This document shows positions 3,855 through 23,943 of a stretch of 24,170 nucleotides of DNA, piece after piece. The position numbers were made by a program, and so were the translations under genes. The stretch is from a virus. Where the stretch lies: positions 1 through 24,170 of IMG/VR virus record IMGVR_UViG_3300002092_000032, one strand, 5' to 3'. The stretch's first letter is position 1. Every line of letters begins with the position of its first letter. The notes under the pieces are model-generated. The model had not been told where the DNA came from. It did no database searches and saw nothing but the letters and a program-made list of their open reading frames with translations.

Positions 3855-3896
3855 AGTTCCATTATCCCTGTTTAACTCATGTTATTATATATTATG

Positions 3897-6800
3897 TTAT
3901 GGTTTCAAGTACATCGGAATCACATTAACTTGGGCAGTTGCACCAAATGTCGTATTTGCCGCTGCATACAATGAAACTGTACCTGCATTGATGTTAGCTG
4001 TAATATCAATGACATCAGCATTAGGAGACGCATTAGATACAAGGCTAGCATATATTGTTATATATGCCGTTACGGTGTCTTGTACTAATAATACTTCAGA
4101 CGCTTGCCAACCTGTGTTTGCACCAGTTGCCTTTGCCATGATAACATACTTAGATACACTGAACAACGATGATGCGAACGAATCAATGAGAGTTGCAGTT
4201 GATGTTACCGAGACGTTTCCACGACTTGATACCACACCATTAGCTAATGATGAATAGTTTGAATTAACATTTGCAGCAGCTACGTTACCGAATGTACCAT
4301 TACCTGTAGAGTTGATGATAGTAGCACCGACGATGTTACCGGCTACTAAGTTACCTGTAGTTGTGATGTTACCAGTTGAGTTAACAATTGTAGCACCAAC
4401 GATGTTACCAGCAGTCAAGTTACCAGTAGTAGTGATAGCACCCGTAGAGTTAACAATTGTAGCACCAACGATGTTACCTACTGATAGGTTACCTGTAGTT
4501 GTAATATTAGCAGTCGTATTGACGAGGGTAGCACCAACGATGTTACCGCTTACAAGATTGCCAACTGCGAGGTTAGCAGTTGTTGTGATGTTACCAGACG
4601 AGTTGATGATAGTAGCACCAACGATGTTACCACTGACGATGTTTCCAGTAGTCGTGATATTACCAGTTGAGTTAACAATTGTAGCACCAACGATGTTACC
4701 ACCGACGATGTTTCCAGTAGTCGTGATGTTACCAGTTGAGTTAACAATTGTAGCACCAACGATGTTACCTGCTGATAGGTTACCAGTTGTTGTGATGTTG
4801 CCGCTACCAGTATTCAATGTACCAGCGATATTAGCACCAGTAGAAGTCACAATGAGTACGTTAGAAGTACCACCGACTGAGGTAGTTACATTTCCACCTG
4901 ATGCGTTGATGTTGACGTTTGATGTACCGTTTGCGATACCAGATACCTGAGAAGCAGTAATACCAGTCAACTGTGAACCGTTACCAATAAAGAAGCCAGC
5001 AGTGACGTTACCAGAACCAGTTAGCTGTCCTGTACCGAAGCCTAGATTACCAACGTTAGCATTACCAGTTGTTGTGATTGTGTTAGAACCAGCAGCGATA
5101 ATACCGATGATATTACCACCTGAGATGTTACCAGTAGTTGTGATTGTGTTAGAGCCAGCTGCGATGATACCGATGATATTGCCACCAGTGATGTTACCAG
5201 AACCAGTTAGCTGTCCTGTACCGAAGCCTAGATTACCAACGTTAGCATTACCAGTTGTTGTGATTGCATTGCTTCCAGCTGCGATGATACCGATGATATT
5301 ACCACCAGTGATGTTACCAGTAGTAGTGATTGCATTGCTTCCAGCTGCGATGATACCGATGATATTACCACCAGTGATGTTACCAGAACCAGTTAGCTGT
5401 CCTGTACCGAAGCCTAAGTTACCAACGTTAGCGTTACCAGTCACGCTTAGTGTGCCGAGAGTACCAACGCTTGTCAAGCTTGAAGTGACAACTGTTGACT
5501 TGAGGACAGTACCTGACAAGTTAGCAGCATTAGCTTGAATCACTGCGTTTGCTGCTGCTGTCAACTGGCCCTGAGAGTTAACAGTGAAGGTTGCAACACT
5601 ATCACCATTACCATAAGAACCAGCAGCCACTGCTGTGCTAGTGATACTAAACTGAGTACCAGATAGTGTTAAGCCTGTTCCAGCAGTATATGATTGAATA
5701 CTGCTGAACTGTGCGAATTGGATGTTGCTAGTACCAAAAGTGATCGTTCCTGATGGTGCACTAACAAGCCAAGAAGTGTTAATATTAGTCGCACCCTGAC
5801 TGACGAAGAAGTAGTCATTGATACTCAGTGCGTTAGCACTATCTGAACCGTATTCGTCAGCGTCTGTTGAACGAGTGATTGCTGCGGCATTAGTGTATGT
5901 GTAAACACCGTTCCAAGCACCATTTGATTCATTCTTGACGAGAATACGAGTACCCACTGTCTGAACGTTAGCGGTATCAATCAAGCTGAATGTACCAGTA
6001 GTGCTGATGTATGCCCCAATACCGTTAGATGTGCCATTAGGTGAAACATATGCAGTAGTACCGCCTGTTGCTACAGCAAGAGTAGTTGTTGTTGCTGCAT
6101 TAACAGCAACGTGGAACGAAATACCTGTTGTTGCGATATTATCTACATACGATTTAGTAGCAGCGTCCTGTGCGTTAACCGGATCAAGAACACTAACGAT
6201 ATTTTTGCTGTTCATGTTCAAGTTACCATTAATGGAACTTACGCCAGTGCCAGTTACGTTTAGAACGCCGCCTGTGACTAAGTTGCCACCAGTAACGTTA
6301 CCAGTAGCGACAAGCAAGCCGCCTGTGCCTAAGTTACCTACGTTAGCATTACCAGTAGTAGTGATTGTGTTAGAGCCAGCTGCGATGATACCGATTATGT
6401 TACCAGCAGTAATATTACCTGAACCGGTGAGTTGGCCAGTGCCGAAGCCTAAGTTACCTACGTTAGCATTACCAGTTGTTGTGATTGTATTGCTTCCAGC
6501 AGCGATAATACCGATGATATTACCACCTGAGATGTTAGCAGTAGTCGTGATATTACCAGTACCAGTGACGACCCCTGATCCGAAGCCCAAGTTACCAACA
6601 TTAGCATTACCAGTTGTTGTGATCGTGTTAGAACCAGCAGCGATAATACCGATGATATTACCACCTGAGATGTTACCAGTAGTAGTGATTGCATTGCTTC
6701 CAGCTGCGATGATACCGATTATGTTACCAGCAGTGATATTACCAGAACCAGTTAGCTGTCCTGTACCGAAGCCCAAGTTACCAACGTTAGCATTACCAGT

Positions 6801-7937
6801 AGTTGTGATTGTGTTAGAACCAGCAGCGATAATACCGATGATGTTGCCACCAGTGATGTTACCAGTAGTTGTGATTGTGTTAGAACCAGCAGCAATAGTA
6901 CCAATTACGTTGCCGGCAGTGACGTTACCTGTGCCAGTGATGACCCCTGCACCAAAGCCGAGATTACCAACGTTAGCATTTGCACTTACGGTGATTGCAG
7001 TGATATTTGCATTTGTAGCACCAATATTACCAACGTTAGCATTACCCGTGCCAGTGTTCAACGTGCCTGCTACATTGACCCCGGTGCCAGTTACGATGAG
7101 AACATTTGAAGTGCCGCCGACTGAGGTAGTTACATTTCCGCCCGATGTGTTGATGTTGACGTTTGACGTACCATTTGCGATACCAGATACCTGAGAAGCA
7201 GTAATACCAGTCAACTGCGAACCGTTACCAATGAAGAAACCGGCAGTGACGTTACCTGTACCAGTTAGCTGTCCTGATCCGAAGCCCAAGTTACCAACGT
7301 TAGCATTACCAGTTGTTGTGATCGTGTTAGAACCAGCTGCGATAATACCGATGATATTACCACCAGTGATGTTACCAGTTGTTGTGATCGTGTTAGAACC
7401 AGCAGCGACAGCACCGATGAAATTGCCAGCAGTGACGTTACCGGTGCCAGTGATGACCCCAGTACCGAAGCCCAAATTACCTACGTTAGCATTACCAGTA
7501 GTAGTGATCGTATTAGAACCAGCAGCAACAATGCCGATTATGTTACCTGCTGAGAGGTTACCAGTAGTTGTAATATTGCCCGTACCAGTATTGAGTGTAC
7601 CTGCTACGTTGACACCAGTAGCAGTTATGACAACAACGTTAGAAGTGCCACCGACTGAGGCTGTTACGTTGCCGCCCGATGCGTTGATGTTGACATTTGA
7701 TGTACCGTTTGCAAGAGTGGACCCAACTGCGGGTGCTGACCACTGTAGCGTATTACCGGTATTCCACGTAAGAACTTGACCAGATGAACCACCTGTGATA
7801 GTTACGTTAGCAGCAGGTCCCAAGTTAGCATTTCCTGATAAGGATAATGCGCCGAAGTTAGCTGCACCATTTGATGCTAATATATTTGCGGTACCTACTG
7901 TAAGACCGTTTTTTACTACGAAATTTTGTGTTGCCAT
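3897..7937 (-). CDS. Long fibre-like virion protein (1346 aa) with low-complexity repeats and a C-terminal beta-rich domain
   Basis: N-terminal FVVKNG motif; many GNIIGIIAAGSNTITTTGN repeats; central DAATKSYVD...RILVKN...NGVY...TRSTD...YTAGTGLTL domain; C-terminal IDSF...SKYVI...QASEVLLVQD domain shared with neighbouring genes; AAGGGA upstream. Confidence 0.85.
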   Translation of the reverse strand: MATQNFVVKNGLTVGTANILASNGAANFGALSLSGNANLGPAANVTITGGSSGQVLTWNTGNTLQWSAPAVGSTLANGTSNVNINASGGNVTASVGGTSNVVVITATGVNVAGTLNTGTGNITTTGNLSAGNIIGIVAAGSNTITTTGNANVGNLGFGTGVITGTGNVTAGNFIGAVAAGSNTITTTGNITGGNIIGIIAAGSNTITTTGNANVGNLGFGSGQLTGTGNVTAGFFIGNGSQLTGITASQVSGIANGTSNVNINTSGGNVTTSVGGTSNVLIVTGTGVNVAGTLNTGTGNANVGNIGATNANITAITVSANANVGNLGFGAGVITGTGNVTAGNVIGTIAAGSNTITTTGNITGGNIIGIIAAGSNTITTTGNANVGNLGFGTGQLTGSGNITAGNIIGIIAAGSNAITTTGNISGGNIIGIIAAGSNTITTTGNANVGNLGFGSGVVTGTGNITTTANISGGNIIGIIAAGSNTITTTGNANVGNLGFGTGQLTGSGNITAGNIIGIIAAGSNTITTTGNANVGNLGTGGLLVATGNVTGGNLVTGGVLNVTGTGVSSINGNLNMNSKNIVSVLDPVNAQDAATKSYVDNIATTGISFHVAVNAATTTTLAVATGGTTAYVSPNGTSNGIGAYISTTGTFSLIDTANVQTVGTRILVKNESNGAWNGVYTYTNAAAITRSTDADEYGSDSANALSINDYFFVSQGATNINTSWLVSAPSGTITFGTSNIQFAQFSSIQSYTAGTGLTLSGTQFSITSTAVAAGSYGNGDSVATFTVNSQGQLTAAANAVIQANAANLSGTVLKSTVVTSSLTSVGTLGTLSVTGNANVGNLGFGTGQLTGSGNITGGNIIGIIAAGSNAITTTGNITGGNIIGIIAAGSNAITTTGNANVGNLGFGTGQLTGSGNITGGNIIGIIAAGSNTITTTGNISGGNIIGIIAAGSNTITTTGNANVGNLGFGTGQLTGSGNVTAGFFIGNGSQLTGITASQVSGIANGTSNVNINASGGNVTTSVGGTSNVLIVTSTGANIAGTLNTGSGNITTTGNLSAGNIVGATIVNSTGNITTTGNIVGGNIVGATIVNSTGNITTTGNIVSGNIVGATIINSSGNITTTANLAVGNLVSGNIVGATLVNTTANITTTGNLSVGNIVGATIVNSTGAITTTGNLTAGNIVGATIVNSTGNITTTGNLVAGNIVGATIINSTGNGTFGNVAAANVNSNYSSLANGVVSSRGNVSVTSTATLIDSFASSLFSVSKYVIMAKATGANTGWQASEVLLVQDTVTAYITIYASLVSNASPNADVIDITANINAGTVSLYAAANTTFGATAQVNVIPMYLKP
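4290..4790 (-). repeat. Tandem coding repeat of about 69 nt (23 aa; GNIVGATIVNSTGNITTTGNxxx), about 7 copies
   Basis: Recurrent gagttaacaattgtagcaccaacgatgttacc on the + strand and the repeated peptide in the ORF translation; boundaries approximate. Confidence 0.85.
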
Positions 7938-7949
7938 CTCTTTTTCCCT

Positions 7950-8606
7950 TTAATCAGTGACATATATACTGGTTATATTAATAATTATGTTCGCAGACAA
8001 TGCAGTAGCAGATAATTGTACAGTTCCAGCGGTAACTGAAGATGTCAATATCACTATTTCATTTCCTGATGTTGTTATACTTCCGTAAATTGTTATATTG
8101 CTATTTATACTATCGTGCACCAAAAGCGTCTCTATGCCTTGAAATCCTGAATCTCCGCCCGCTTTTATTACGTACTTTGCTACCCGATAATCTGCTGCTA
8201 AAAATTGATCTATAACTACCGTATTAGATACGGCACCTAAAGATATATTTGCTCGGTTACCTACTACACTCTCACCGATCAATAGATTAGCAGTAACATT
8301 GCCTGAGATGACAAGGTTACTTAATGTACCGACCGAAGTGATATTGGGTTGAGCATTTGTTGTTACTGTGCCGGATGTGCCTGCACTTACTGAATAAGTT
8401 GCGTTTGCCACAGCACCTGTAACGTTTCCACCGTTAATGCTATGTAAGCCATATCCGTTACCGGACATTGTTCCGGAACCAAAATTAGAATTGCCATTTA
8501 CACTAAGATTATTAGCATATACGTTGCCGATTGGGTCTATTATAATGGTGTAGGTGTTGCCTAGTGAATATCCAGATATTGAATTAAACTGTGTTTCGCC
8601 TGACAT
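7950..8606 (-). CDS. Short paralog of the fibre proteins (218 aa), putative structural or adaptor protein
   Basis: N-terminal FNSISGYSLG motif, one AQPNITSVGTL repeat, and a C-terminal IDQF...AKYVI...ETLLVHD domain similar to the end of 3897..7937. Confidence 0.8.
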   Translation of the reverse strand: MSGETQFNSISGYSLGNTYTIIIDPIGNVYANNLSVNGNSNFGSGTMSGNGYGLHSINGGNVTGAVANATYSVSAGTSGTVTTNAQPNITSVGTLSNLVISGNVTANLLIGESVVGNRANISLGAVSNTVVIDQFLAADYRVAKYVIKAGGDSGFQGIETLLVHDSINSNITIYGSITTSGNEIVILTSSVTAGTVQLSATALSANIIINITSIYVTD

Positions 8607-8625
8607 TATAAACTTTCAACTTACT

Positions 8626-8633
8626 TATTTATT
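8626..8633 (-). promoter_or_regulatory. T4-type late promoter-like element (AATAAATA)
   Basis: TAAATA core 20 nt upstream of the ATG at 8606, immediately after a terminator hairpin. Confidence 0.55.
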
Positions 8634-8636
8634 AGG

Positions 8637-8674
8637 ATAAAAATACGGACCAACTTAATGACCCGTATTTTTAT
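8637..8674 (-). terminator. Intrinsic terminator hairpin, possibly bidirectional
   Basis: Perfect 12-bp inverted repeat ataaaaatacgg (8637-8648) / ccgtatttttat (8663-8674), extendable by G-U pairs on the minus strand, just downstream of the stop at 8690. Confidence 0.75.
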
Positions 8675-8689
8675 TATACTATAGAATTA

Positions 8690-11600
8690 CTAGATTAGTC
8701 TGTATTGTGTAGTGAATACTGTTGTGTTGCTACTTGAAGGAGTTACTGCTAGATTTAGTGTAGAGCCAACTATGTTCACTGAGAAGGATCCTACGCTAGT
8801 TCCTAATGAGACTCCACCGAAGACAGACCATCCTACATCCGTCCCGTCAGTTACTGCGTGAATGCTTGTAACCTGATACTTAGTTCCGCCTGCATCCACG
8901 CCCTTAATCAAGAACTCTGCACCAGTGATGTTTCCAGAAATACCTGCTACATTAACTGAAGCAATCGTAATATTAGGTCCAACAGTTGAAGTCGTTACTG
9001 ACGCATATCCAAGATATGCTGTTCCTTCCGCTGTATTAGCAACATTAGTCAAGACTATATTTCCACCTACCGTAGCATCAGCAGCAATGTTTGCACCAGA
9101 TGTTGCGATTAGATTACCACCACTGATATTGCCGGTAGTTGTGACAGTGTTAGAACCAGCAGCGATAGTGCCGATGATGTTACCACCACTGATATTGCCG
9201 GTAGTTGTGACAGTGTTAGAACCAGCAGCGATAGTGCCGATGATGTTACCACCACTGATATTGCCAGTAGTTGTGATAGTGTTAGAACCAGCAGCCACAG
9301 CACCTACGAAAGTATTTGCAGTGATGACGTTAGCACCGGAGATGTTAGAGCCAGAACCAGTGCCGATATTCAAGTTTCCACCAATATTTGCGTTACCAGT
9401 TACGTCAATGCTTGTCAGGGTACCAACTGAAGTAATGTTTGGCTGTGCATTCGCAGTGACTGTTCCAGCACTCAATGCATATGTTGCATTTGCTACGGTG
9501 CCAGTGACATTAGCACCAGTGATTGAAGTGAGGGCAGAACCATTACCGCTTACATTAGTGAAATCACCGTTAACAGCTCCGATGTTACCGACATTCGCAT
9601 TGCCACTAGCATATAGTGTACCGCTGATGTTAGCACCAGTAGTAGTTACGACAAACACATTAGCATTACCGCCAGCAGAAATATTGACATTTCCGTCCGC
9701 TGTAGGGATTTTCACATTTGATGTGCCGTTTGCGAGAGGACCGATGACATTACCTGCTGTAATATTGCCAGTTACCGATAGATTAGCGAGCGTACCAACG
9801 CTTGTCAGACTTGAGTTAACAATCGTTGCTGCAAGAGTGGTGCCAGTCAAGTTAGCAGCATTTGCAGTGATCGCAGTGTTAGCAGCAGCAGTCAGCTGGC
9901 CCTGAGAGTTAACAGTGAATGTCGCAACCGCATCTCCGCTGCCGTATGACGCTGCTGTTACAGTAGTATTAGAGAGGTAGAACTGATTGTTAGGATAGAG
10001 ACCTAATCCAGTACCAGCAGTGTATATCTGTACTTGCGCGAACTGAGCAAAAGTAAGATTAGTCGTGCCGAATACGATTGTGCCACCGGTGCTAAGAACA
10101 TATGCTTCGCCTGCATCACTGCCACTAATTACGAGGAAGAATGCACCTTGACTTAAACCTTGGGCACTATTCGGAATATAGGTGTCCCCGTCAGCAGCAC
10201 GAGTTAGAATCCAAGGACTGCCGCCGCCGCCAGCTACACCAACTTGTGAAATATAGTACACACCGTTCTGTGTTTGATCAGTCTGTCCAAGAACAAGAAT
10301 GCGATCATTCAACACAGCAGTGTACGACTCAATTATTAATGGACCGTTAGTGTTTGAGGTAAGAGTTGCACCAACCCCTGAATTTGCGAGTGAGGTAATA
10401 GACAACCCACTACCGTTAGTAAGAACGATCGGGTCGCCGTCAAATGTAAGTGCAAGTTTGATAGTTGTCGTTGTCGGCACCGCAGCAACAAAATACGGAG
10501 TACCGGCAGTAATTCCGTTAGTAGTACTCCCGAATACGATAACATTATTAAGTGTTAGTCCGTGTGCGGAACCTGTTGCAATAGTGTCAGCGTTGGTGAT
10601 AGTAGTCCAAGTCGGAGTAGTGCCACCACCGGTGTAGGACGCAGCTAAATTCTCATCAGCATCGTTGTTTACGGCAGGGTGGATGTCAAGTCCTGCTGCA
10701 ACAGCATTATCAACATATGCCTTAGTAGCGGCGTCTTGTGCTGATACAGGATTTGCTAGAGATTTGATGTTTACTTGATTTAGAATCACATTACCGTTTA
10801 CTGGAGAAAGATAGATGTTACCGTTACCAGTAGTCGTGACAATAAGATTGGCTCCCACACTCGTGAGTGTATTAGCAACGAGATTAGCATTGCTTTGAAC
10901 ATCACCGCTTGCGACTGAAGAACCAGTAAGTGCTAAATTACCGAAATTTGCATTACCTGTGCCAGTAGTCAATGTGCCTGTGATATTTGCACCAGTTGAA
11001 GTTACTACGAACACATTAGGAGTGCCGCCTACTGAAGTGATAACATTTCCGCCTGCTGTAGGGATGCTCACATTTGAACTGCCATTAGCGAATACACCGA
11101 GGATGTTACCACCAGTGATATTGCCAGTTGTTGTGATAGTGTTAGAACCAGCAGCGATGGTGCCGATGATGTTACCACCGGTAACATTTCCAGTAGTTGT
11201 AATGTTGTTAGCACCGGCAACGATAGCACCGATAAGATTTCCACCACTGATGTTTCCAGTTGTTGTGATAGTGTTAGAACCAGCAGCGATGGTGCCGATG
11301 ATGTTACCACCAGTGATGTTACCATTAGCGACTATCAAGCCATCTGTGCCTAAATTACCTACATTTGCGTTACCGGTTACATTAGCAGTACCGGTAATAT
11401 TAGCACCGGTTGCAGTGACGACAAGAACATTAGCATTACCACCAACTGAAACATTTACATTTCCGTTAGCTGTAGGAATGTTCACATTTGATGTACCGTT
11501 TGCGATACCTGATACTTGAGAAGCAGTAATACCGGTCAACTGAGAACCGTTACCAATGAAGAAGGTAGCAGAAAGATTACCGCTCGCATCTCTTAGTGCA

Positions 11601-12712
11601 ATAGTATCTGCTGTGTTTGCTGATGCACTTGATGCACCTGATAGTAGGCTAGCATTCAAGTTAGCAACTACTGTATTTGAGTTGACTAAGAAGGGAGCAG
11701 TGCCTTGTGCGATATTCGCAATAACTTGCGGAGTTGTAATATTAGCAGAAGCTAGAACTTGCGTAGTATCTAAGTTACCAACGTTTGCATTACCAGTTAC
11801 GTCAAGACTTGTTAGCGTGCCAACTGAAGTGATGTTGGGTTGTGCGTTTGTAGTGACCGTACCAGCAGTACCGGCACTACCAGCAGTACCAGCACTCAAT
11901 GCATATGTGGCATTCGCTACTGTACCGGTGACATTAGCACCGTTAATAGAAGTAAGAGAAGAACCATTTCCTGTGAAATAGTTTGCGTTTACGTAGTTGA
12001 CACTATTGATATTGCCACCGGACATAGTGATATTGCCACCAGAACCGCTTGTGCTGATATTACTAGCAAGGAGATTACCAGTGACATCAAGATTTCCTGA
12101 AACATTAGCACCAGTTGAAGTTACGACGAACACATTAGCATTACCACCAACTGAAGTGTTAACATTGCCTCCTGCTACCGGAACGCTTACATTTGAGTTA
12201 CCATTAGCAATACTAGAAGTTCCTACTGTGCCCCAACTTAGATTGCCTGCACCATCCGTTTTTAGGTATTGACCATTGGTACCTCCTTGAATCGTGATGT
12301 TGCCTACCGGACCCAGATTAGCAGTGCCAACCATTTCCAGTGAACCAAGATTAGCATAACCAGCGATGTTTACGCCTGTATTAGTGATAGTCAACTGTGA
12401 AGTGACATTACCATTTACATAGTTGTAGATATTACCGTTTGCAGTAGGAATAGAAACATTGCTGTTGCCGTTAAAAATTGCATTCTGTGATGATGCTGCC
12501 ACCCATGAAAGATTTCCTGCACCGTCTGTCTGCAACGAGTACCCAGCTGAACCGCCAGTGATGATGACGTTGCTAACAAGACCCAGATTCGCACTTGTAC
12601 TCGCGACAATGTTGTTAGAGGTTACGTCCCCGTTGCCATAAATAATTGTTACCGGTGTCTCTCCTACTGAGAAACCTGCGATTGAATTTAGTGGATTTAG
12701 TCCGCTGGCCAT
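8690..12712 (-). CDS. Long fibre-like virion protein (1340 aa)
   Basis: N-terminal LNSIAGFSVG motif; LQTDGAGNLSW, AQPNITSVGTL and GNIIGTIAAGSN repeats; DAATKAYVD...DRILV...NGVY...LTRAAD...YTAGTGL domain with an insertion; C-terminal beta-rich domain. Confidence 0.85.
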   Translation of the reverse strand: MASGLNPLNSIAGFSVGETPVTIIYGNGDVTSNNIVASTSANLGLVSNVIITGGSAGYSLQTDGAGNLSWVAASSQNAIFNGNSNVSIPTANGNIYNYVNGNVTSQLTITNTGVNIAGYANLGSLEMVGTANLGPVGNITIQGGTNGQYLKTDGAGNLSWGTVGTSSIANGNSNVSVPVAGGNVNTSVGGNANVFVVTSTGANVSGNLDVTGNLLASNISTSGSGGNITMSGGNINSVNYVNANYFTGNGSSLTSINGANVTGTVANATYALSAGTAGSAGTAGTVTTNAQPNITSVGTLTSLDVTGNANVGNLDTTQVLASANITTPQVIANIAQGTAPFLVNSNTVVANLNASLLSGASSASANTADTIALRDASGNLSATFFIGNGSQLTGITASQVSGIANGTSNVNIPTANGNVNVSVGGNANVLVVTATGANITGTANVTGNANVGNLGTDGLIVANGNITGGNIIGTIAAGSNTITTTGNISGGNLIGAIVAGANNITTTGNVTGGNIIGTIAAGSNTITTTGNITGGNILGVFANGSSNVSIPTAGGNVITSVGGTPNVFVVTSTGANITGTLTTGTGNANFGNLALTGSSVASGDVQSNANLVANTLTSVGANLIVTTTGNGNIYLSPVNGNVILNQVNIKSLANPVSAQDAATKAYVDNAVAAGLDIHPAVNNDADENLAASYTGGGTTPTWTTITNADTIATGSAHGLTLNNVIVFGSTTNGITAGTPYFVAAVPTTTTIKLALTFDGDPIVLTNGSGLSITSLANSGVGATLTSNTNGPLIIESYTAVLNDRILVLGQTDQTQNGVYYISQVGVAGGGGSPWILTRAADGDTYIPNSAQGLSQGAFFLVISGSDAGEAYVLSTGGTIVFGTTNLTFAQFAQVQIYTAGTGLGLYPNNQFYLSNTTVTAASYGSGDAVATFTVNSQGQLTAAANTAITANAANLTGTTLAATIVNSSLTSVGTLANLSVTGNITAGNVIGPLANGTSNVKIPTADGNVNISAGGNANVFVVTTTGANISGTLYASGNANVGNIGAVNGDFTNVSGNGSALTSITGANVTGTVANATYALSAGTVTANAQPNITSVGTLTSIDVTGNANIGGNLNIGTGSGSNISGANVITANTFVGAVAAGSNTITTTGNISGGNIIGTIAAGSNTVTTTGNISGGNIIGTIAAGSNTVTTTGNISGGNLIATSGANIAADATVGGNIVLTNVANTAEGTAYLGYASVTTSTVGPNITIASVNVAGISGNITGAEFLIKGVDAGGTKYQVTSIHAVTDGTDVGWSVFGGVSLGTSVGSFSVNIVGSTLNLAVTPSSSNTTVFTTQYRLI

Positions 12713-16034: not shown

Positions 16035-16400
16035 ATGCACACTCAACAGCCACATAGACCTATATGCACTCACTGCAACTTTTCTCTAGCCAAACCAAAC
16101 GGCAAGAGCAAACATGGTTTCCAACAATGGCATAGATATTGCATTGACTGTGCTAAAGCGATCTACAATGATAGATTCAAACACCTACAGCACAAGAAAA
16201 TGATATGCGAGGATTGTGACTTTGTACCAGAAGATAAGGTTCAGCTAGACCTTGTTTTCAGAGATGGTAACAAGAGTAATAAATCAAAGAATAATCTCTT
16301 GACATTGTGTGCTAATTGTGCTAGACTATATAATAAGAAAATGCGTACAGGACGCAAGTCAATTCTCAACGCTACCGTAGACGGTGACACTAGGATTTGA
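16035..16400 (+). CDS. Zinc-binding HNH-like protein, probably catalytically degenerate
   Basis: Four CxxC pairs (CTHC, CIDC, CEDC, CANC); QLDLVFRDGNKSNKSKNNLLTLCANCAR follows the HNH pattern but lacks the usual His residues; the only credible plus-strand gene. Confidence 0.7.
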   Translation: MHTQQPHRPICTHCNFSLAKPNGKSKHGFQQWHRYCIDCAKAIYNDRFKHLQHKKMICEDCDFVPEDKVQLDLVFRDGNKSNKSKNNLLTLCANCARLYNKKMRTGRKSILNATVDGDTRI

Positions 16401-17183
16401 CTATTCGTGCGTTATCTCCATAATATGGAGAGACGGAAGAAAATGATAATCATATTGCTTGTGGATCGCATCTTCAATGCCTTCAGGGATTTTAGAGAGA
16501 ACATCAGGTATTTCCCATGCATAAACGGATTCATGCTCTTTTCCTGATGCTATTGCTTCCATTCTAAGATGATTTGTATATTTAAAAATCAAATCCTTGA
16601 AGTAATCTGTTATTTTTAGCCCAGAGCCTTCTAATATTTTTTCTGCTTTGGGTAAGGTAAGCCCTTCAGGTTCAGCACACTCAAATAGCAAAATTATCCC
16701 GTCTTCTTTTAAATTTTTCTTTATATTTGCAAAGAAATCCTTATGACTTTTCCACCCGACATCTATAGCTATTCTTTCAATGTCAGGGTTAGAACGATAT
16801 GCTCTAGTCATTGTTTCATCGTAGAAAGGGGGATCACTTACAATGAGATCAAATTTACCTTCTAGATTCTTAACTGTATCACTATGAACAATATTGACTT
16901 TATCTTTCCAATCATTATTAGGAAACAGTTGTGTTTTGATAGCATCTTCACATGCTTCAGCATGTTTTTCAAGTAAGGTGACATTGTTGCAAATTCCAGA
17001 TTCTAGAATGCTGTATCCTATAAATCCGGGCCCGGCACACCATTCTAAACAGTCATCAAATACCCTATCAGGATACCGATGTTTGAGATAGTGAATATAA
17101 TCTTGTCCAAACCATATACCGCCACCGTTATTTTTTGAACTGAAAAAAACAGTTTTAGAATTGATTTTAAACTCTTCTATCAT
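16401..17183 (-). CDS. Class I SAM-dependent methyltransferase (HemK/MTS-like)
   Basis: Motif I LEWCAGPGFIG, acidic residue after the next strand (TLLEK), motif IV FDLIVSDPPF. Confidence 0.8.
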   Translation of the reverse strand: MIEEFKINSKTVFFSSKNNGGGIWFGQDYIHYLKHRYPDRVFDDCLEWCAGPGFIGYSILESGICNNVTLLEKHAEACEDAIKTQLFPNNDWKDKVNIVHSDTVKNLEGKFDLIVSDPPFYDETMTRAYRSNPDIERIAIDVGWKSHKDFFANIKKNLKEDGIILLFECAEPEGLTLPKAEKILEGSGLKITDYFKDLIFKYTNHLRMEAIASGKEHESVYAWEIPDVLSKIPEGIEDAIHKQYDYHFLPSLHIMEITHE

Positions 17184-18793: not shown

Positions 18794-19354
18794 CTACATC
18801 ACCGGATCAGTTATCACTAGGACATTCCCACGCATCATGATATTCTGGCCATGAAGGTCTAGTTCATATGTGGGTGTCAACTTATCAGCGATGAGATCAC
18901 ATGCTGCTTTTATTCCAGGTTGATACTTTTCTATCATGTTCATCTGCTTTTCTCTATATTCATCTGGTGCAGCCGACATGTAGTTTTCCATAGTCCTACC
19001 TATCGTTAGTGGATTACCTAGCTCAGGTATCTCTACAGCAGGTGTCAATCGCTCTATCTGTATCGCATGATACTGGTTAGTGACTCTAATCAGCCTTCCC
19101 TTGAATACAGGAAAATGTATATTTTTGTTTTTCATCACCAGATCAATAAAAGCCATATAAGCAGTGTCTTTAGACTTAAAGAGTTTTAATACATGATCAG
19201 CACCGGGTCTTGCATAGACTTGAGCAAATACTGCATCATTCTTGTCTAGTCTCTTATATCCAGCCTTGAAGAGTATATACTCAGCCATTATCAATGGCGG
19301 CCTGGTTATCTCATTCAAGACTTTTAATTCGGTTAGGAATTCAAATGCTCTCAT
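18794..19354 (-). CDS. Protein kinase-like protein resembling the T7 gp0.7 Ser/Thr kinase domain
   Basis: GYKRL...VFAQVY, VLKLF (ATP-binding Lys), IERL, catalytic loop DLHGQNIM and terminal ITDPV, matching the gp0.7-type D(M/L)HxxNIM...ITDPV pattern. Confidence 0.75.
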   Translation of the reverse strand: MRAFEFLTELKVLNEITRPPLIMAEYILFKAGYKRLDKNDAVFAQVYARPGADHVLKLFKSKDTAYMAFIDLVMKNKNIHFPVFKGRLIRVTNQYHAIQIERLTPAVEIPELGNPLTIGRTMENYMSAAPDEYREKQMNMIEKYQPGIKAACDLIADKLTPTYELDLHGQNIMMRGNVLVITDPVM

Positions 19355-20958
19355 TTGTTTCTCTCAGCCGCCATTTTCACTTCTTCTGATGGATTGTTGA
19401 TGTAACGAATCACCCAACCATCTTTTTTAACAGCAGCCATCTGCACTTCTTCTGATGGATTCTTGATGTAACGAATTGCATATCCAGTTTCTTGAACAGC
19501 AGCCATCTGCACTTCTTCTGATGGATTCTTGATGTATTGAATCATCCGACCATTTTGTTGAACAGCAGCCATTTTCACTTCTTCTGATGGATTCTTGATG
19601 TAATGAATCACCCAACCATCTTTTTTAACAGCAACCATCTGCATTTTTTCTGATGGATTCTTGATGTATTGAATCGCCCGACCATCTTGTTTAACAGCAG
19701 CCATTTTCACTGCTTCTGATGGATTCTTGATGTATTCAATCGTCCGACCATCTTGTTTAACAGCAGTCATCTGCATTGCTTCTGATGGATTGTTGATGTA
19801 TTGAATCGCCCAACCATCTTGTTTAACAGCAGCTATCTGCGCTTCTTCTGATGGATTCTTGATGAAACGAATTGCCTTCCCATTTTGTTTAACAGCAATC
19901 ATCTGCAATGCATCTGATGGATTATTGATGTAACGAATTGCTAATCCAGCTCGTTTAACAGCAGCCATTTTCACTTCTTCTGATGGATTATTGATGTATT
20001 GAATCACATACCCATTTTCTTGAACAGCAGCCATTTTCACTGCTTCTGATGGATTCTTGATGTATTCAATCGTCCGACCATCTTGTTTAACAGCAGCTAT
20101 CTGCGCTTCTTCTGATGGATTCTTGATGAAACGAATTGCCTTCCCATTTTGTTTAACAGCAATCATCTGCAATGCATCTGATGGATTTTGGACGTAACGA
20201 ATTGCTAATCCTTCATGTTTAACAGCAGTCATCCATTTATCTTCCGAAAATAGATTATATACCGTAATTACTTGTTTAGGACTTAATCGTTCATCTCGTT
20301 CATCCATGAATTGTGCAGATTCAAAATGAAATTGCCATTTTACCCCTGATCCACGGAATATGATGTCATATAGAGGACCTCGTCTGCTATAGTACTTGAA
20401 CCGATTATCTTTATCCCCTGCTGTACACCAGCGGGTGCCACGCCCATAATATTTGGCTGCTTCTTTGGTCTTCGGAATCATGATCTTTAATGCACCAGTA
20501 TCTTTATACAGGACTGCTTGACCTGACTTGATTAGACTTTCTTCTTCGGCTGCTTTCTCCTCATTACCGGTCTTCTTTTCAGCATACTGATCCATCAAGT
20601 TCAATAACAAATTCATACTTTTGAATTTATTGATGTCTCTTTGGTCAGTGGGGATCCTGCCGCTCTGCGTTAATTTGGCATATCTGGTCAATGGATCAGT
20701 CAACTTAGATAGGTCTTCAACGAATCTAATACCACCATTTGGATCAACAAACCTAGATATGATCCATTTGGTATATTTGGAATTAGTAGTCGGATCAATA
20801 TTATTGGCTATATATTCAATGAACTTAGCTGGATCGTCTTTCATAGAAGACCCTTGCGGATCTTTGGCCAACTTAGCCATAAGTTGTTGGCCGAATCTAC
20901 CTGATGTGGCTTCAATCGCGGCTGGACTCAGTGCTTCAAAAAGTTCTTGTAGACGCAT
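19351..20958 (-). CDS. Phage protein (535 aa) with a globular N-terminal region (GTRWCTA motif) and about 13 C-terminal 22-aa helical repeats (DUF4116-like)
   Basis: Start reassigned to the ATG at 20958 (MRLQELFEA), 4 nt after TATAAATA; repeat consensus NPSEEVQMAAVKQDGxAIxYIK; ATGA overlap with the kinase gene. Confidence 0.8.
   Translation of the reverse strand: MRLQELFEALSPAAIEATSGRFGQQLMAKLAKDPQGSSMKDDPAKFIEYIANNIDPTTNSKYTKWIISRFVDPNGGIRFVEDLSKLTDPLTRYAKLTQSGRIPTDQRDINKFKSMNLLLNLMDQYAEKKTGNEEKAAEEESLIKSGQAVLYKDTGALKIMIPKTKEAAKYYGRGTRWCTAGDKDNRFKYYSRRGPLYDIIFRGSGVKWQFHFESAQFMDERDERLSPKQVITVYNLFSEDKWMTAVKHEGLAIRYVQNPSDALQMIAVKQNGKAIRFIKNPSEEAQIAAVKQDGRTIEYIKNPSEAVKMAAVQENGYVIQYINNPSEEVKMAAVKRAGLAIRYINNPSDALQMIAVKQNGKAIRFIKNPSEEAQIAAVKQDGWAIQYINNPSEAMQMTAVKQDGRTIEYIKNPSEAVKMAAVKQDGRAIQYIKNPSEKMQMVAVKKDGWVIHYIKNPSEEVKMAAVQQNGRMIQYIKNPSEEVQMAAVQETGYAIRYIKNPSEEVQMAAVKKDGWVIRYINNPSEEVKMAAERNK
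19365..20230 (-). repeat. 66-nt tandem coding repeat, about 13 copies
   Basis: tctgatggatt(c/a/g)ttgatg recurs every 66 nt; 13 NPS motifs in the translation. Confidence 0.9.
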
Positions 20959-20962
20959 TATG

Positions 20963-20970
20963 TATTTATA
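20963..20970 (-). promoter_or_regulatory. T4-type late promoter TATAAATA
   Basis: Exact consensus, 4 nt upstream of the ATG at 20958. Confidence 0.7.
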
Positions 20971-21076
20971 GTTCTTTACAGTTATTACCGTGCCAACGCG
21001 CATAACCATTCACTGCAACATCTTTACCACAATGTGGGCACTGTTTCTTCTCACGCTTTGTACCACGTACCGCTTC
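20966..21076 (-). pseudogene. Remnant 3' end of a homing-endonuclease-type gene (contains repeat copy A, core 20971-21001)
   Basis: Start-less frame EAVRGTKREKKQCPHCGKDVAVNGYARWHGNNCKEL*; CPHC...RWHxxNCK is a C-terminal zinc-finger motif common in phage HNH/GIY-YIG/NUMOD3 endonucleases. Confidence 0.7.
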
Positions 21077-21077
21077 A

Positions 21078-21446
21078 TTATTCAAACAGTCTGCGGGCCC
21101 GTGCTGTGGTAGCAACTTCATTCAGAACCTTGATATTCTTTTTAACTTCAGCAACATCTTCTTCTACATATGGATTATAAGCTTTAAAATCTCCACCGTG
21201 GCCAAGTTTGATATGACACTCGGTAGTTTTATTCATGCATAGTGTGATGAGATTTGTAGGTTCTAGTTCCAACTCCGGATGAAGATGAAATGGTTTCATA
21301 TGATGCACGTTCAGTCTGTTGGACGAACCACATGCAGCACAGGTTGAATGTTCTTTCAGGAACTTATTTTCAAGTGCTGGCCATTTAGAACTTCTTTTGG
21401 TGGTGATGCCGGCAGCTGCATCTCTGGTCTTTGTACTTTTGTCCAT
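21078..21446 (-). CDS. Small HNH endonuclease
   Basis: CAACG...LNVHHMKPF...NLITLC...CHIKLGH; AGGAG upstream. Confidence 0.8.
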   Translation of the reverse strand: MDKSTKTRDAAAGITTKRSSKWPALENKFLKEHSTCAACGSSNRLNVHHMKPFHLHPELELEPTNLITLCMNKTTECHIKLGHGGDFKAYNPYVEEDVAEVKKNIKVLNEVATTARARRLFE

Positions 21447-21466
21447 GCGAGGTAACTCCTATAATG

Positions 21467-21508
21467 TACTTAGCGTTCTTTACAGTTATCACCGTGCCAA
21501 CGAGCGTA
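21467..21508 (-). repeat. Cassette-boundary repeat copy B with promoter variant GCTAAGTA
   Basis: gttctttacagttatcaccgtgccaacgagcg at 21475-21506, identical to copy C; reads YARWHGDNCKER* on the minus strand. Confidence 0.9.
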
Positions 21509-21522
21509 GACTTTAACGACAT

Positions 21523-21804
21523 TTAGGTAGAAATGTGTTCTTGTATTGATTGATACAAATCCAGTAGTCCATCGTAAACCTTGTCAAAATCGGGGTCTCC
21601 CTCTAAATTTTGCCAAGTAGCATCAGTTAGCAACTCATGCACATAGCTTCCAAGTTGCAATACATTATTTTTCCCTCGAAACTTGTTAGTATCATTGATA
21701 AACTGTTCAAATGCACGATAGTATGAGTCAATGTTTATTCCGTGTATTGCCCAGTAAGTTTTTATATGATCTTCTGTTTCATATAGTATTTCAATGATCT
21801 TCAT
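21523..21804 (-). CDS. Hypothetical protein (93 aa), possible internal head protein
   Basis: Begins MKIIEILYE; overlaps the end of the upstream 49-aa ORF. Confidence 0.7.
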   Translation of the reverse strand: MKIIEILYETEDHIKTYWAIHGINIDSYYRAFEQFINDTNKFRGKNNVLQLGSYVHELLTDATWQNLEGDPDFDKVYDGLLDLYQSIQEHIST

Positions 21805-21940
21805 TATCGGTTTTCATCTCTTGTATAGCAGACTCAACAAAGTTATTTAACTCTTCAACTTTTTGTTGCAGTGTTTTTAGTGTTCCGTCTTCATTTAAGG
21901 TGTTGCTAGGTGTTTCTTTGTATAGTTTTATGTTTTTCAT
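21791..21940 (-). CDS. Small acidic hypothetical protein (49 aa), absent from the ORF track
   Basis: MKNIKLYKETPSNTLNEDGTLKTLQQKVEELNNFVESAIQEMKTDNEDH*, preceded by a TAAGGA Shine-Dalgarno and ATTAAATA. Confidence 0.65.
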   Translation of the reverse strand: MKNIKLYKETPSNTLNEDGTLKTLQQKVEELNNFVESAIQEMKTDNEDH

Positions 21941-21957
21941 GCTATTGTTCCTTATGA

Positions 21958-21997
21958 TATTTAATGTTCTTTACAGTTATCACCGTGCCAACGAGCG
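21958..21997 (-). repeat. Cassette-boundary repeat copy C with promoter variant ATTAAATA
   Basis: 32-bp core at 21966-21997 identical to copy B; reads ARWHGDNCKEH*; begins 1 nt after the stop codon at 21999. Confidence 0.9.
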
Positions 21998-21998
21998 G

Positions 21999-22451
21999 TC
22001 AGTATTTTTCAACCTTGACTATCTTTGCAGATGGAGTTAGGTATTCCCAGACAACTTCATTAGGACTTTCTTCACCTGACCAATACGCTTCAGCGGCATC
22101 TTTTATTTCATCACTGTCTAATGGAAAACCAAGATCAACTAATGAACTTATTTCAGATAACCAATTCATGTCATGACGCTGTACTTCGCCGATCGGAACA
22201 ACTGTAAATAACCAATCCGTCGCTGCTCCGGCAAGATCAACATCATCCGGGTTATCACACATAAAAACACTTTGCTTATGAGCTAATTTATCGGTGGGGC
22301 GATACATTTCAATTGCGGCGTAGAAATTGGTATCCTGCCAATCATTCTCATAGTCGTCTCTCGGTGTTAGAATAGTACCTACCGGAAGTTCGTTATAACT
22401 ACCGTGATAGTAGTGATTCACTGATTCAGTTATGATTTCTGTGATACGCAT
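21999..22451 (-). CDS. Putative ADP-ribosyltransferase (Arr-like ART fold)
   Basis: YYHGSYNELPVGTILTP resembles the Arr-family FxHG(T/S)...L.VG..L motif; later SVFM, LFTVVPIG and WEYL segments fit the ART strand order. Confidence 0.55.
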   Translation of the reverse strand: MRITEIITESVNHYYHGSYNELPVGTILTPRDDYENDWQDTNFYAAIEMYRPTDKLAHKQSVFMCDNPDDVDLAGAATDWLFTVVPIGEVQRHDMNWLSEISSLVDLGFPLDSDEIKDAAEAYWSGEESPNEVVWEYLTPSAKIVKVEKY

Positions 22452-22456
22452 GATTG

Positions 22457-22488
22457 TATTTATAGTTCTTTACAGTTGTTACCGTGCC
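22457..22488 (-). repeat. Cassette-boundary repeat copy D with late promoter TATAAATA (22457-22464)
   Basis: 22455-22488 tgtatttatagttctttacagttgttaccgtgcc matches 20961-20994 at 33/34 positions; reads HGNNCKEL*. Confidence 0.9.
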
Positions 22489-23006
22489 TAGCTATCCATT
22501 GAAAAAGTTATAACTTGATATTGAATATCTTTATTTACTCCGCCATCGTTGAATATCTCAACATCAGGAAGACGACCTATACCACGATGATCTGGATCCT
22601 TATTTACATATATTGATTCCCGAACACATTGCAGTAGACGTTTAAAAGTAGGATTATATATGATTTCTGATTCATATGGTCCGTGCCAAGTAACTACAAT
22701 AGTCGGTAAGTTGTTACATATCGCTTTTTCAAATGCAACGATCTCGTCATCAGGAATCGGATCATAGTAATCTGGAAGACCAGTTAAGTACCAATACAAA
22801 CTTTGTTTTTCCCACCGTGCTTCACCTCGCCCACGTGGTCTATCTGCTTTGGCTAACTCTCCTCTGGTCCAGCCAGCGGATTTAAAATACGCCATTAGGT
22901 CCTTATACGACGACCAGTTAGTGCTAAAATAATGATTTCTTACCACATCCAATGAATCTCGCTTGAGGTGTCGTATTAAATTTTCAGGTGTGATCTCTTT
23001 AGGCAT
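22488..23006 (-). CDS. Hypothetical protein (172 aa)
   Basis: GGAGG upstream; TAATG stop/start overlap with the upstream ORF; no recognised motif. Confidence 0.75.
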   Translation of the reverse strand: MPKEITPENLIRHLKRDSLDVVRNHYFSTNWSSYKDLMAYFKSAGWTRGELAKADRPRGRGEARWEKQSLYWYLTGLPDYYDPIPDDEIVAFEKAICNNLPTIVVTWHGPYESEIIYNPTFKRLLQCVRESIYVNKDPDHRGIGRLPDVEIFNDGGVNKDIQYQVITFSMDS

Positions 23007-23191
23007 TAATCCTCCATATACTCAAATCCACTAGGAATGATAACTGTGCTACCATTAGTTAGCGTGACTTCATATTCTGTTCTATCCGCACTCAGTGCTA
23101 CACTGGTACACTCATCTTCACTTATTCCATGATCAGCTAACGCAGATTTATACGCTGCTCTCATCATTTTTTCATACTGTCTACTATTCAT
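23006..23191 (-). CDS. Small hypothetical protein (61 aa)
   Basis: Likely start MNSRQYEK at 23191, in an ATGA overlap with the endonuclease stop; AAGGA upstream. Confidence 0.6.
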   Translation of the reverse strand: MNSRQYEKMMRAAYKSALADHGISEDECTSVALSADRTEYEVTLTNGSTVIIPSGFEYMED

Positions 23192-23943
23192 TTTCTTTTC
23201 CTTCCACCTAGTTGCCAACCTTGTTCTAACCATTGAGGTAGTGTGTCGGACTTAACTTTCTTTTCAGCACCGTCTTTGTTGATAGAGATGTTTCCTAATG
23301 TGGCATTACGGACGTTATCAGCATGTCCTTCTTTTTTCGCGACGCCAGTTTGAGTGAGAGACCTCTTTAGTTTTTCTTCTTCGCTCATCGGACCTTTTGG
23401 TTTGCCCTTGCTTGCGAGTGACATCTTTAGACAAGTTTCTTCTGATCTTTTTTGACCAAGTATTTTAGCAACTCGTTTTGCTTGACCTTCAGCCTGTTTA
23501 ACAGGATCTATCTTTCGGTTGCGTGTTCTTTCTCTGTGTTTTTCTAACTCTTCACCCTCAAGTTTTTGACCTTTGTTCCAGGCTGGTTTACCCTTCATTC
23601 TTTCAGAATGTAATTGAGCGTGTGCTATACGATGTTTTTCATATGCTCTTGTTATGATACGAGAATGGTATCTTTGTTGAAACTCGTTTTGGGCATTCAT
23701 TCCATTGAATGCGTATGACATTTTAACATGATCTGCGCCTTCAGTCATCTTTAACAAAGCCCAATGACAAAGTGCGTGTTCTCTTCCAGTCAGCCATACT
23801 TTGTTGGATTTGTCATCATTGCCTCCCATTGAACTAGGAATAATATGATGTCGTTCTTTGTATTGCCCTTTTGGCAATATACGATTTTTTGCTTTCTCAA
23901 CGAGAAGCATATAGTGTTTGGTGTATTTGTTATCTTTGAACAT
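23188..23943 (-). CDS. HNH homing endonuclease with NUMOD3-like basic repeats
   Basis: YKERHHIIPSSMGGNDDKSNKVWLTGREHALCHWAL is the HNH motif of phage homing endonucleases; KGKPAWNKG, RSEETCLKMS and MSEEEKLKRS are NUMOD3-like; start at ATG 23943, 5 nt after TATAAATA. Confidence 0.85.
   Translation of the reverse strand: MFKDNKYTKHYMLLVEKAKNRILPKGQYKERHHIIPSSMGGNDDKSNKVWLTGREHALCHWALLKMTEGADHVKMSYAFNGMNAQNEFQQRYHSRIITRAYEKHRIAHAQLHSERMKGKPAWNKGQKLEGEELEKHRERTRNRKIDPVKQAEGQAKRVAKILGQKRSEETCLKMSLASKGKPKGPMSEEEKLKRSLTQTGVAKKEGHADNVRNATLGNISINKDGAEKKVKSDTLPQWLEQGWQLGGRKRK

Follow-up and report, generated by a model that had tools for sequence, protein, structure and literature searches.

The window analysed here is a stretch of 24,170 nucleotides, the first part of the 102,345-bp viral contig IMGVR_UViG_3300002092_000032, in which a short direct repeat occurs in four copies (A to D) within a gene island behind the major capsid protein gene. 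Sequence comparison shows that the repeat consists of the final 8-37 codons of the DNA-binding zinc-finger tail (CxxC...RWHG[D/N]NCK) of free-standing homing endonuclease genes (HEGs). We lean towards the reading that these HEG scars have been kept together with the promoter and the leader lying downstream of them, and that they offer short homology for a recombinational shuffling of the genes in between. The island is located in the genome of a giant freshwater T4-like phage; with an estimated completeness of 29%, the length of the contig implies a jumbo phage. An earlier note, made from the letters of this DNA alone, had interpreted the array as an integron-like, late-promoter cassette system. 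Taken as a whole, that interpretation is partly supported.

The four copies of the repeat

The core of the repeat, GGCACGGTRAYAACTGTAAAGAAC (24 nt, minus strand), has exactly four matches (Table 1) against an expectation of 0.00 in 100 shuffles, and a search of the whole contig returned no fifth copy. The descriptive part of the earlier note was reproduced. Four direct repeats are present where it had placed them, each beginning at, or within ~15 nt of, the stop codon of the preceding gene. Copies B and C are identical over 32 nt (21475-21506 versus 21966-21997), copies A and D match at 33/34 nt, TATAAATA included, and the genes that the copies separate (p172, p150, p49 + p93, HNH122 and the DUF4116 repeat protein gene) are mutually unrelated. 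All genes of the repeat region lie on the minus strand. Upstream of the following start codon, the copies end in TATAAATA (A and D), ATTAAATA (C) or GCTAAGTA (B). The spacing from copy to copy is 504, 491 and 499 bp despite the unrelated cargo. A mechanistic constraint to ~500 bp was rejected in view of the spacings of 46, 413, 526, 563, 677, 1151 and ~1,700 bp found in relatives, and the regularity is probably a coincidence.

The reading frames of copies B, C and D do not match those of the neighbouring genes, and these copies cannot encode a finger; the predicted 51-amino-acid open reading frame (ORF) that holds copy A may be a stand-alone zinc-finger remnant. Two other explanations of the letters were discarded. 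Frameshifting was considered as a way of joining HNH122 to the finger of copy A, but the site is unremarkable and the shift would have to be +1; moreover, the homologue of HNH122 in the related contig L162 has the same stop and no tail. The stub opens with TGGCAC, which is reminiscent of a sigma54 -24 box; no -12 box accompanies it, however, and the letters are Trp-His codons. Folding of 71-nt segments was weaker than in shuffled controls for all four copies (z +0.24 to +1.64), and an Rfam search of the repeat copies returned nothing at E<=1.

The repeat as the tail of homing endonuclease genes

Copy A retains the full CxxC...H...C finger with all four putative zinc ligands as well as an ATG. 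Its PHROG matches are the C-termini of endonuclease families 27406, 12324 and 655, and at the DNA level it is 84% (L011), 87% (L101) and 81% (L068) identical to the last 100-116 nt of HEGs in related contigs, which bears out the endonuclease tail recognised in the earlier note. Read in one frame, copies B, C and D are of the type ...ARWHG[D/N]NCKE.* (asterisk, stop codon), with the W missing in copy D. Intact endonuclease genes of ~260-330 aa with the same tail lie directly behind the capsid gene in L006, L011, L018, L038, L040 and L061-L068. Among 63 capsid-gene loci (related contigs fetched by the capsid protein with at least 1 kb downstream), 17 carry a HEG of the tail type within 1.5 kb downstream of the capsid gene, and a HEG behind the capsid gene is found in more than 30 metagenome contigs as well as in the cultured phage PA5oct. 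The 19-mer GGCACGGTRAYAACTGTAA was found by scanning in 68 viral contigs; it stands at the end of an intact endonuclease gene in ~47 of them and as an orphan in ~20. The CxxC half is lost in all independent orphans, most of which keep just 0-3 codons ahead of WHG.

The tail is borne by at least two nuclease bodies, HNH-NUMOD3 (phrog_655: L101, L068) and phrog_314 (L110, L102), and may therefore be regarded as a shared, swappable DNA-binding module. Likewise, the proteins of L011 and L068 are 78% identical in the tail versus 41% in the body. The window has its own HNH-NUMOD3 homing endonuclease, HEG259 (phrog_655, E 1.6e-39; a weak NUMOD3 match with E 8.8e-4 and 19.6 bits, for a Pfam cut-off of 20.4 bits), which ends in an alternative C-terminus. 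More than 30 contigs have a homologue of HEG259 following the capsid gene, in some cases with the zinc-finger tail (L006, L168); the zinc-finger-tailed one of L168 is 88% identical to HEG259 over residues 1-211. In L009 and L154, the alternative C-terminus of the HEG259 type is joined, in a different frame, to a remnant of the old tail 10 codons long.

An intact tail accompanied by one or two orphan stubs is also seen in at least five further lineages: L102 (413 bp apart), L108/L115 (677 and 526 bp; two samples), the L110 family (1151 bp), L127/L138 (563 bp), L154, L038 and L118. Both stubs of L127/L138 end in ...DNCKNKY*, and in L038 and L118 the stub lies 46 nt behind the intact gene. The four-copy array of the window is the largest seen. 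As like arrays are present in independent assemblies from other samples (L108/L115, L127/L138, L110 family), an assembly artefact, which the earlier note had kept in mind, is unlikely. The extension AAAGAAC is common to all four copies of the window; 60 distinct tails have ~40 extension types between them, and outside the window this one is seen only in the tail of L154. The common extension speaks for either duplication within the lineage or repeated input of one endonuclease lineage, rather than four unrelated invasions.

The late-promoter box and the shared leader

The intact HEG of L101 ends in ...ARWHGDNCKQL*, with its TAA stop inside TATAAATA and the ATG of a kinase-like gene 5 nt further on. 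Copies A and D share this geometry (TATAAATA, 4 or 5 nt, ATG), the box of copy D standing 5 nt before the ATG of p150, and HEG259 has its own TATAAATA 5 nt ahead of its ATG. In 1.57 Mb of related loci, an ATG follows TATAAATA at +5 at 27 of the 108 distinct sites, at +4 at 9 and at +3 at 8 (controls 1-3), and the genes with TATAAATA-N5-ATG comprise endonucleases, homologues of ORF121, small head proteins of ~72 aa and a 1115-aa gene. The overall frequency of TATAAATA is not enriched (11 seen versus 11.5 expected in 102 kb). Given the enrichment of the TATAAATA-N5-ATG arrangement, the box is very likely a real late signal in this clade. The late-promoter element of the earlier note thus very likely holds for copies A and D, which match TATAAATA exactly; copies C (6/8) and B (5/8) lack the consensus. 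For T4-type late promoters, the TATAAATA box is sufficient. Their start lies ~6 nt downstream and depends on a gp55-type factor; at this distance, transcription would begin on the first base of the ATG. The +5 geometry suggests a predicted class of leaderless late mRNAs. A general statement on T4-type late promoters is found in PMC1524935. The arrangement of TATAAATA and ATG was located in the window at 20963-20958, 22464-22449 and 23956-23941, and in G000 at 90548.

The genes behind copies A and D, as well as those behind the equivalent elements in L009, L091, L093, L101 and L110, start with the leader M[KR][IL]xE[IL][ILF]xE (e.g., MRITEIITES, MRLQELFEAL, MRINEIITES, MRIKELFES, and MRINEIINES in the kinase-like gene of L101). 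The first 31 nt of p150 are identical (31/31) to those of the second kinase-like gene of L101, while the protein bodies are unrelated. Homologues of p150 elsewhere have other leaders (MKLEEI, MKLNEI, MRLYEV). The wider motif M[KR][ILVA]x[ED][ILMFV][ILMFTV] is present in 45 of 2,349 distinct ORFs, distributed over 20 unrelated body clusters, whereas ~1 is expected by a rough estimate from typical residue frequencies. The leader resembles the T4 capsid targeting sequence, and a targeting role is predicted by this analogy. In T4, that sequence is MKTYQEFIAE (PMC8442874). Leader-bearing genes span positions 18794-22451 of the window and are also found at loci L009, L091, L093, L095, L101, L102 and L110.

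Variability of the island and its breakpoints

The island is hypervariable. The interval between the capsid gene and ORF121, the conserved gene at its far border, measures ~150 bp in L007 and L008 versus 7.6 kb here, and the cargo of L110 and L102 is entirely different although their capsid proteins are 98.6-98.7% identical to that of the window. Comparison of the sequences reveals five indel or replacement junctions that coincide with the repeat or its leader. The homology of L090-L094, which runs from the capsid gene through p172, ends in all five contigs at the p172 stop codon (22489), the left edge of copy D. Compared with L009, the segment from p75 to p172 is inserted between the end of HEG259 and stub D. 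Homology between HNH122 and L162 covers the gene only (21434-21069), which is bounded in the window by copies B and A. Relative to L110, the body of the DUF4116 repeat protein (20935-19327) is inserted between the tail-promoter-leader unit and the kinase-like gene. The fifth junction is the leader swap of p150 with respect to the kinase-like gene of L101; copy D is 88-90% identical over 67-68 nt to the tail-plus-leader junction of L009 and L101.

In L091 the p49-p93 pair is retained, with a stub and then a gene bearing the leader behind it. The stub of L093 is preceded by two other small genes and followed by the kinase-like gene. The p186 homologues of L110, L009, L093 and L101 lie directly behind tail and promoter. 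A possible second, degenerate stub was seen by eye upstream of the p49 homologue in L091.

Mechanism and alternative explanations

According to the reading that we lean towards, the bodies of endonuclease genes would be deleted, swapped or displaced and the 3' end would remain. The stub would survive, we infer, because the promoter and leader with which the next late gene begins are physically attached to it. Direct repeats of 24-34 identical bp, together with 20-30 nt of shared leader-coding sequence, could then serve as short homology for the general recombination of the phage, which breaks made beside the capsid gene by the resident endonucleases would probably stimulate. In this way, cassettes would be added, deleted or swapped by use of the copies, as we infer, without the need for a dedicated site-specific recombinase. 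Copies of the AAAGAAC lineage bound three ~0.5-kb cassettes in the window. Precedents exist both for repeat-mediated shuffling and for HEGs at the boundaries of exchange (PMC2839356, PMC4122927, PMC10055350).

Several observations weigh against this reading. No direct sign of recombination between copies was found: exact-pattern scans of viral and metagenome collections yielded no near-identical strain, the scans of viral and metagenome contigs for the exact 24-mer giving 0 hits, and there are therefore no strain-level variants to compare. The stub is lacking in most contigs with a HEG259-type gene, so its retention is not obligatory. A length of 24-34 bp is short for efficient homologous recombination. 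Copies B and C have degenerate boxes in place of the TATAAATA consensus, followed by ordinary Shine-Dalgarno leaders. In a nearest-neighbour test for concerted evolution over 39 nt, the copies of the window and those of L009/L101 tie at 34-36/39; the test is ambiguous in that it does not separate duplication within the genome from repeated input of a HEG lineage, and the informative part is AAAGAAC only. Finally, the element occupies the entire intergenic space, so that the breakpoints of gene-wise exchanges fall on it whether it is causal or not. The turnover of cargo at the repeat that the earlier note had expected is thus visible in the alignment of the post-capsid locus across relatives, as gene content varies and the five junctions are found at the element, but a causal part of the repeat is confounded by the way it fills the gap.

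The main rival is that the copies are passive, young stubs. HEGs would have invaded the site beside the capsid gene in succession and decayed to 3' stubs of the locally dominant lineage, which play no role in later rearrangement. The turnover of the island is very fast (98.7% capsid protein identity, different cargo), so stubs need no selection to look conserved. The arrays of relatives often have unlike extensions (L102, L108, L110), a new intact HEG lies 46 nt ahead of an old stub in L038 and L118, and the many stub-free contigs with a HEG259-type gene fit as well. We nevertheless rate this explanation as possible but rather doubtful: all four copies of the window share one of ~40 extension types, the two stubs of L127/L138 have the same ending, and the left edges of orphans lie mostly 0-3 codons from WHG with the CxxC half always lost, a clustering that suggests constraint or a preferred joint. 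That same clustering just upstream of TGG, the strong enrichment of the fixed TATAAATA-N5-ATG geometry and the low structure of the region relative to shuffled controls (z +0.2 to +1.6) could also be explained by a conserved cis-regulatory element of ~35 nt, from TGGCAC to TATAAATA, selected as the upstream portion of a late promoter or else for the AU-rich, unstructured start that it gives the next gene, in which case repetition would reflect function and not recombination. This is unlikely, as the other genes with TATAAATA-N5-ATG (HEG259, ORF121 homologues, the 72-aa head proteins and the 1115-aa gene) have unrelated upstream sequences, many stubs have no TATAAATA behind them, and the TATAAATA box alone suffices for T4-type late promoters.

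A dedicated integron-like system, in which the repeat is a specific recombination site and a specialised enzyme mediates the capture and expression of cassettes, would account for single cassettes of much the same size (504, 491 and 499 bp) lying between direct repeats and for the promoter-like box at each joint. We consider it highly improbable, since there is no integrase or recombinase among the island genes and no attC-like fold, the repeat is plainly a coding remnant with only four copies in 102 kb, and the spacing in relatives varies from 46 to ~1,700 bp. Very little likelihood is also given to decoy or immunity sites, i.e., to stubs, or the 51-aa ORF of copy A, that bind or mimic the tail of related endonucleases and so shield the locus from cleavage by competitors. 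Copy A does retain four putative zinc ligands and an ATG, and domain-only HEG relatives have been discussed in the context of phage conflicts (PMC10055350), but nothing marks the tail-coding DNA as a recognition site, and copies B, C and D cannot encode a finger.

Tentatively, the proposed shuffling of retained HEG scars can be taken further. The stub, TATAAATA and 25-30 nt of leader-coding sequence might together constitute a portable 5' adaptor, such that any ORF recombining in would become expressed late (possibly from a leaderless mRNA), targeted to the capsid and injected with the DNA. The island could then be an arsenal of injected effectors under rapid reshuffling (the ADP-ribosyltransferase-fold protein, the gp0.7-like kinase and the DUF4116 repeat protein), with a turnover driven by the endonucleases that seed the adaptors. 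The array would connect three subjects that are mostly considered apart in T4-like phages, namely the turnover of homing endonucleases beside an essential gene, the repeat-mediated shuffling of accessory genes and leader-tagged, probably packaged proteins. The decay of an endonuclease gene may leave something of use, a joint that carries a promoter and serves again as the point at which new late genes are spliced in. Should the leader-bearing cargo be injected, new anti-defence effectors of uncultured jumbo phages could be sought in the island, and the stub would provide a simple tag by which to find islands of this kind in metagenomic sequence.

Comparison with known systems

Early-promoter stem-loop (PeSL) elements of T4-type phages offer a close parallel (Arbiol et al. 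2010, PMC2839356; Comeau et al. 2014, PMC4122927), with homologous recombination between copies as the proposed mechanism. Like PeSLs, the repeats are short regulatory motifs repeated in a hyperplastic region, flanking ORFans or small cassettes at the indel and replacement breakpoints of close relatives, and the flanked genes vary among close relatives as they do at PeSL sites. A PeSL combines an early sigma70-type (or middle) promoter (-35, N17, -10) with a stem-loop terminator (PMC4122927), and mini-circles have been shown for PeSLs. In contrast, the element of the window consists of an endonuclease coding remnant and a late TATAAATA box (A and D), and has neither a -35/-10 pair nor a stem-loop.

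The internal-protein (IP) locus of T-even phages is similar in that unrelated late proteins have a common N-terminal leader of ~10 residues ending in hydrophobic-x-Glu, in that a gp21-like protease is nearby and in its hypervariability. A passage of PMC3012670 that cites Repoila et al. (1994) describes T-even internal proteins as diverse except for the capsid targeting sequence. The putative targeting leader of the window (M[KR][IL]xE[IL][ILF]xE) differs in being one residue shorter; moreover, the island is found downstream of the capsid gene, with endonuclease genes and their stubs interspersed in it. Free-standing HEGs as described by Barth, Dunham and Seed (2023, PMC10055350) share the position beside an essential structural gene, the swapping of DNA-binding modules and the occurrence at recombination boundaries. 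The HEG-flanked islands treated there are large (>10 kb) and of high identity, whereas here short 3' HEG stubs are repeated inside a small island.

With integrons, the array has in common an ordered row of single-gene cassettes, a repeated separating element and a promoter function at the joint. The analogy fails on the defining features (IntI, attI/attC, Pc), as there is no recombinase gene in the island, and the repeats derive from coding sequence, without a folded attC-type site or a single upstream Pc. Pfam and PHROG scans of the 16 island genes, on a contig that represents 29% of the genome, identified HNH nucleases, a methyltransferase, a kinase-like protein and unknowns only, and neither IntI nor any other recombinase. 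The integron-like system of the earlier note thus finds no support, the copies showing neither an attC-like nor a PeSL-like fold, and by analogy the array resembles phage gene shuffling of the known type more than an integron.

Genomic setting and cargo genes

Beyond the end of the window, the contig continues into T4-type head genes (Table 1). The nearest cultured relatives of the capsid protein (66%) are those of Vibrio phage 2.275.O and Pseudomonas phage PA5oct, and a megablast comparison of the region with GenBank phages gave no match.

Table 1. Features of the post-capsid island and of the adjoining head genes, in window coordinates.
Feature	Position	Strand	Remarks
Portal protein gene	beyond window end		among T4-type head genes
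gp21-like prohead protease	beyond window end		phrog_207, E 1.9e-59
368-aa protein	beyond window end		scaffold-gene position; phrog_10922
Major capsid protein gene	24068-25264, past window end		phrog_138, E 2.5e-98
HEG259, HNH-NUMOD3 homing endonuclease	23188..23943	-	directly behind capsid gene; alternative C-terminus, without zinc-finger tail
p75, small conserved gene	23006..23233	-	overlaps HEG259 end; 69% aa identity in L090, L091, L094
p172, cargo gene	22488..23006	-	85-86% aa identity in L090-L094
Copy D	22452..22488	-	orphan stub ARHGNNCKEL*, W codon lost; begins inside p172 stop; TATAAATA 22457-22464; core 22465-22488
p150, cargo gene	21999..22451	-	ADP-ribosyltransferase-like fold (modelled); leader MRITEIITES
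Copy C	21958..21998	-	orphan stub ARWHGDNCKEH*, begins directly after p150 stop; then ATTAAATA and p49 Shine-Dalgarno leader; core 21966-21989
p49 + p93 cassette	21523..21940	-	58% and 52% aa identity in L091; p93 start MKIIEILYE
Copy B	21467..21522	-	orphan stub, own-frame reading VVKVYARWHGDNCKER*; then GCTAAGTA and HNH122 Shine-Dalgarno leader; core 21475-21498
HNH122, second, unrelated free-standing HNH endonuclease	21078..21446	-	between copies B and A; Pfam HNH E 1.5e-4
51-aa ORF holding copy A	20966..21121	-	overlaps HNH122 end in another frame
Copy A	20963..21076	-	complete zinc-finger tail ...KREKKQCPHCGKDVAVNGYARWHGNNCKEL*; TATAAATA 20963-20970 contains stop; core 20971-20994
DUF4116 repeat protein	19351..20958	-	thirteen 66-nt (22-aa) tandem repeats; leader MRLQELFEAL; directly behind copy A
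p186, T7 gp0.7-like kinase-like gene	18794..19354	-	phrog_15752; leader MRAFEFLTEL
p260, small-domain methyltransferase	16401-17183		island end; Pfam MTS E 1.7e-8; weak DNA-methyltransferase PHROG matches
ORF121	16035..16400	+	conserved, far border of island; 63-76% nt identity in >15 relatives; fibre genes follow

The product of p150 models as an ADP-ribosyltransferase-type fold (predicted local distance difference test score 78, residues 1-10 disordered). Foldseek matches include 2AUA (BC2332; E 1.6e-4) and the rifampin ADP-ribosyltransferase Arr (probability 0.97), and an Atlas feature search led to DUF2441. The protein recalls T4 Alt, a packaged ADP-ribosyltransferase. The homologue of HNH122 in L162 (3001-3520; 85.5% nt and 87% aa identity) adjoins tRNA genes on the opposite strand; as HNH122 is present in at least two unrelated contexts, it is considered a mobile free-standing endonuclease. 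Relatives of the N-terminal domain of the DUF4116 repeat protein were sought in viral contigs and none were found. Its repeats occupy 19351-20324, and three giant fibre-like genes (1284+, 1346 and 1340 aa; within 3-12712) also have a 66-nt periodicity, with repeats that cross-match one another. ORF121 has a CxxC N-terminus and weak HNH-like matches (phrog_14736 and phrog_1571, E ~4e-4); if these are real, a nuclease gene stands at either end of the island. On the reverse strand of L101 (3219-4935), three paralogues of the gp0.7-like, kinase-like gene (191, 192 and 187 aa) are arranged in tandem, each with a leader and joined by overlapping stop and start codons.

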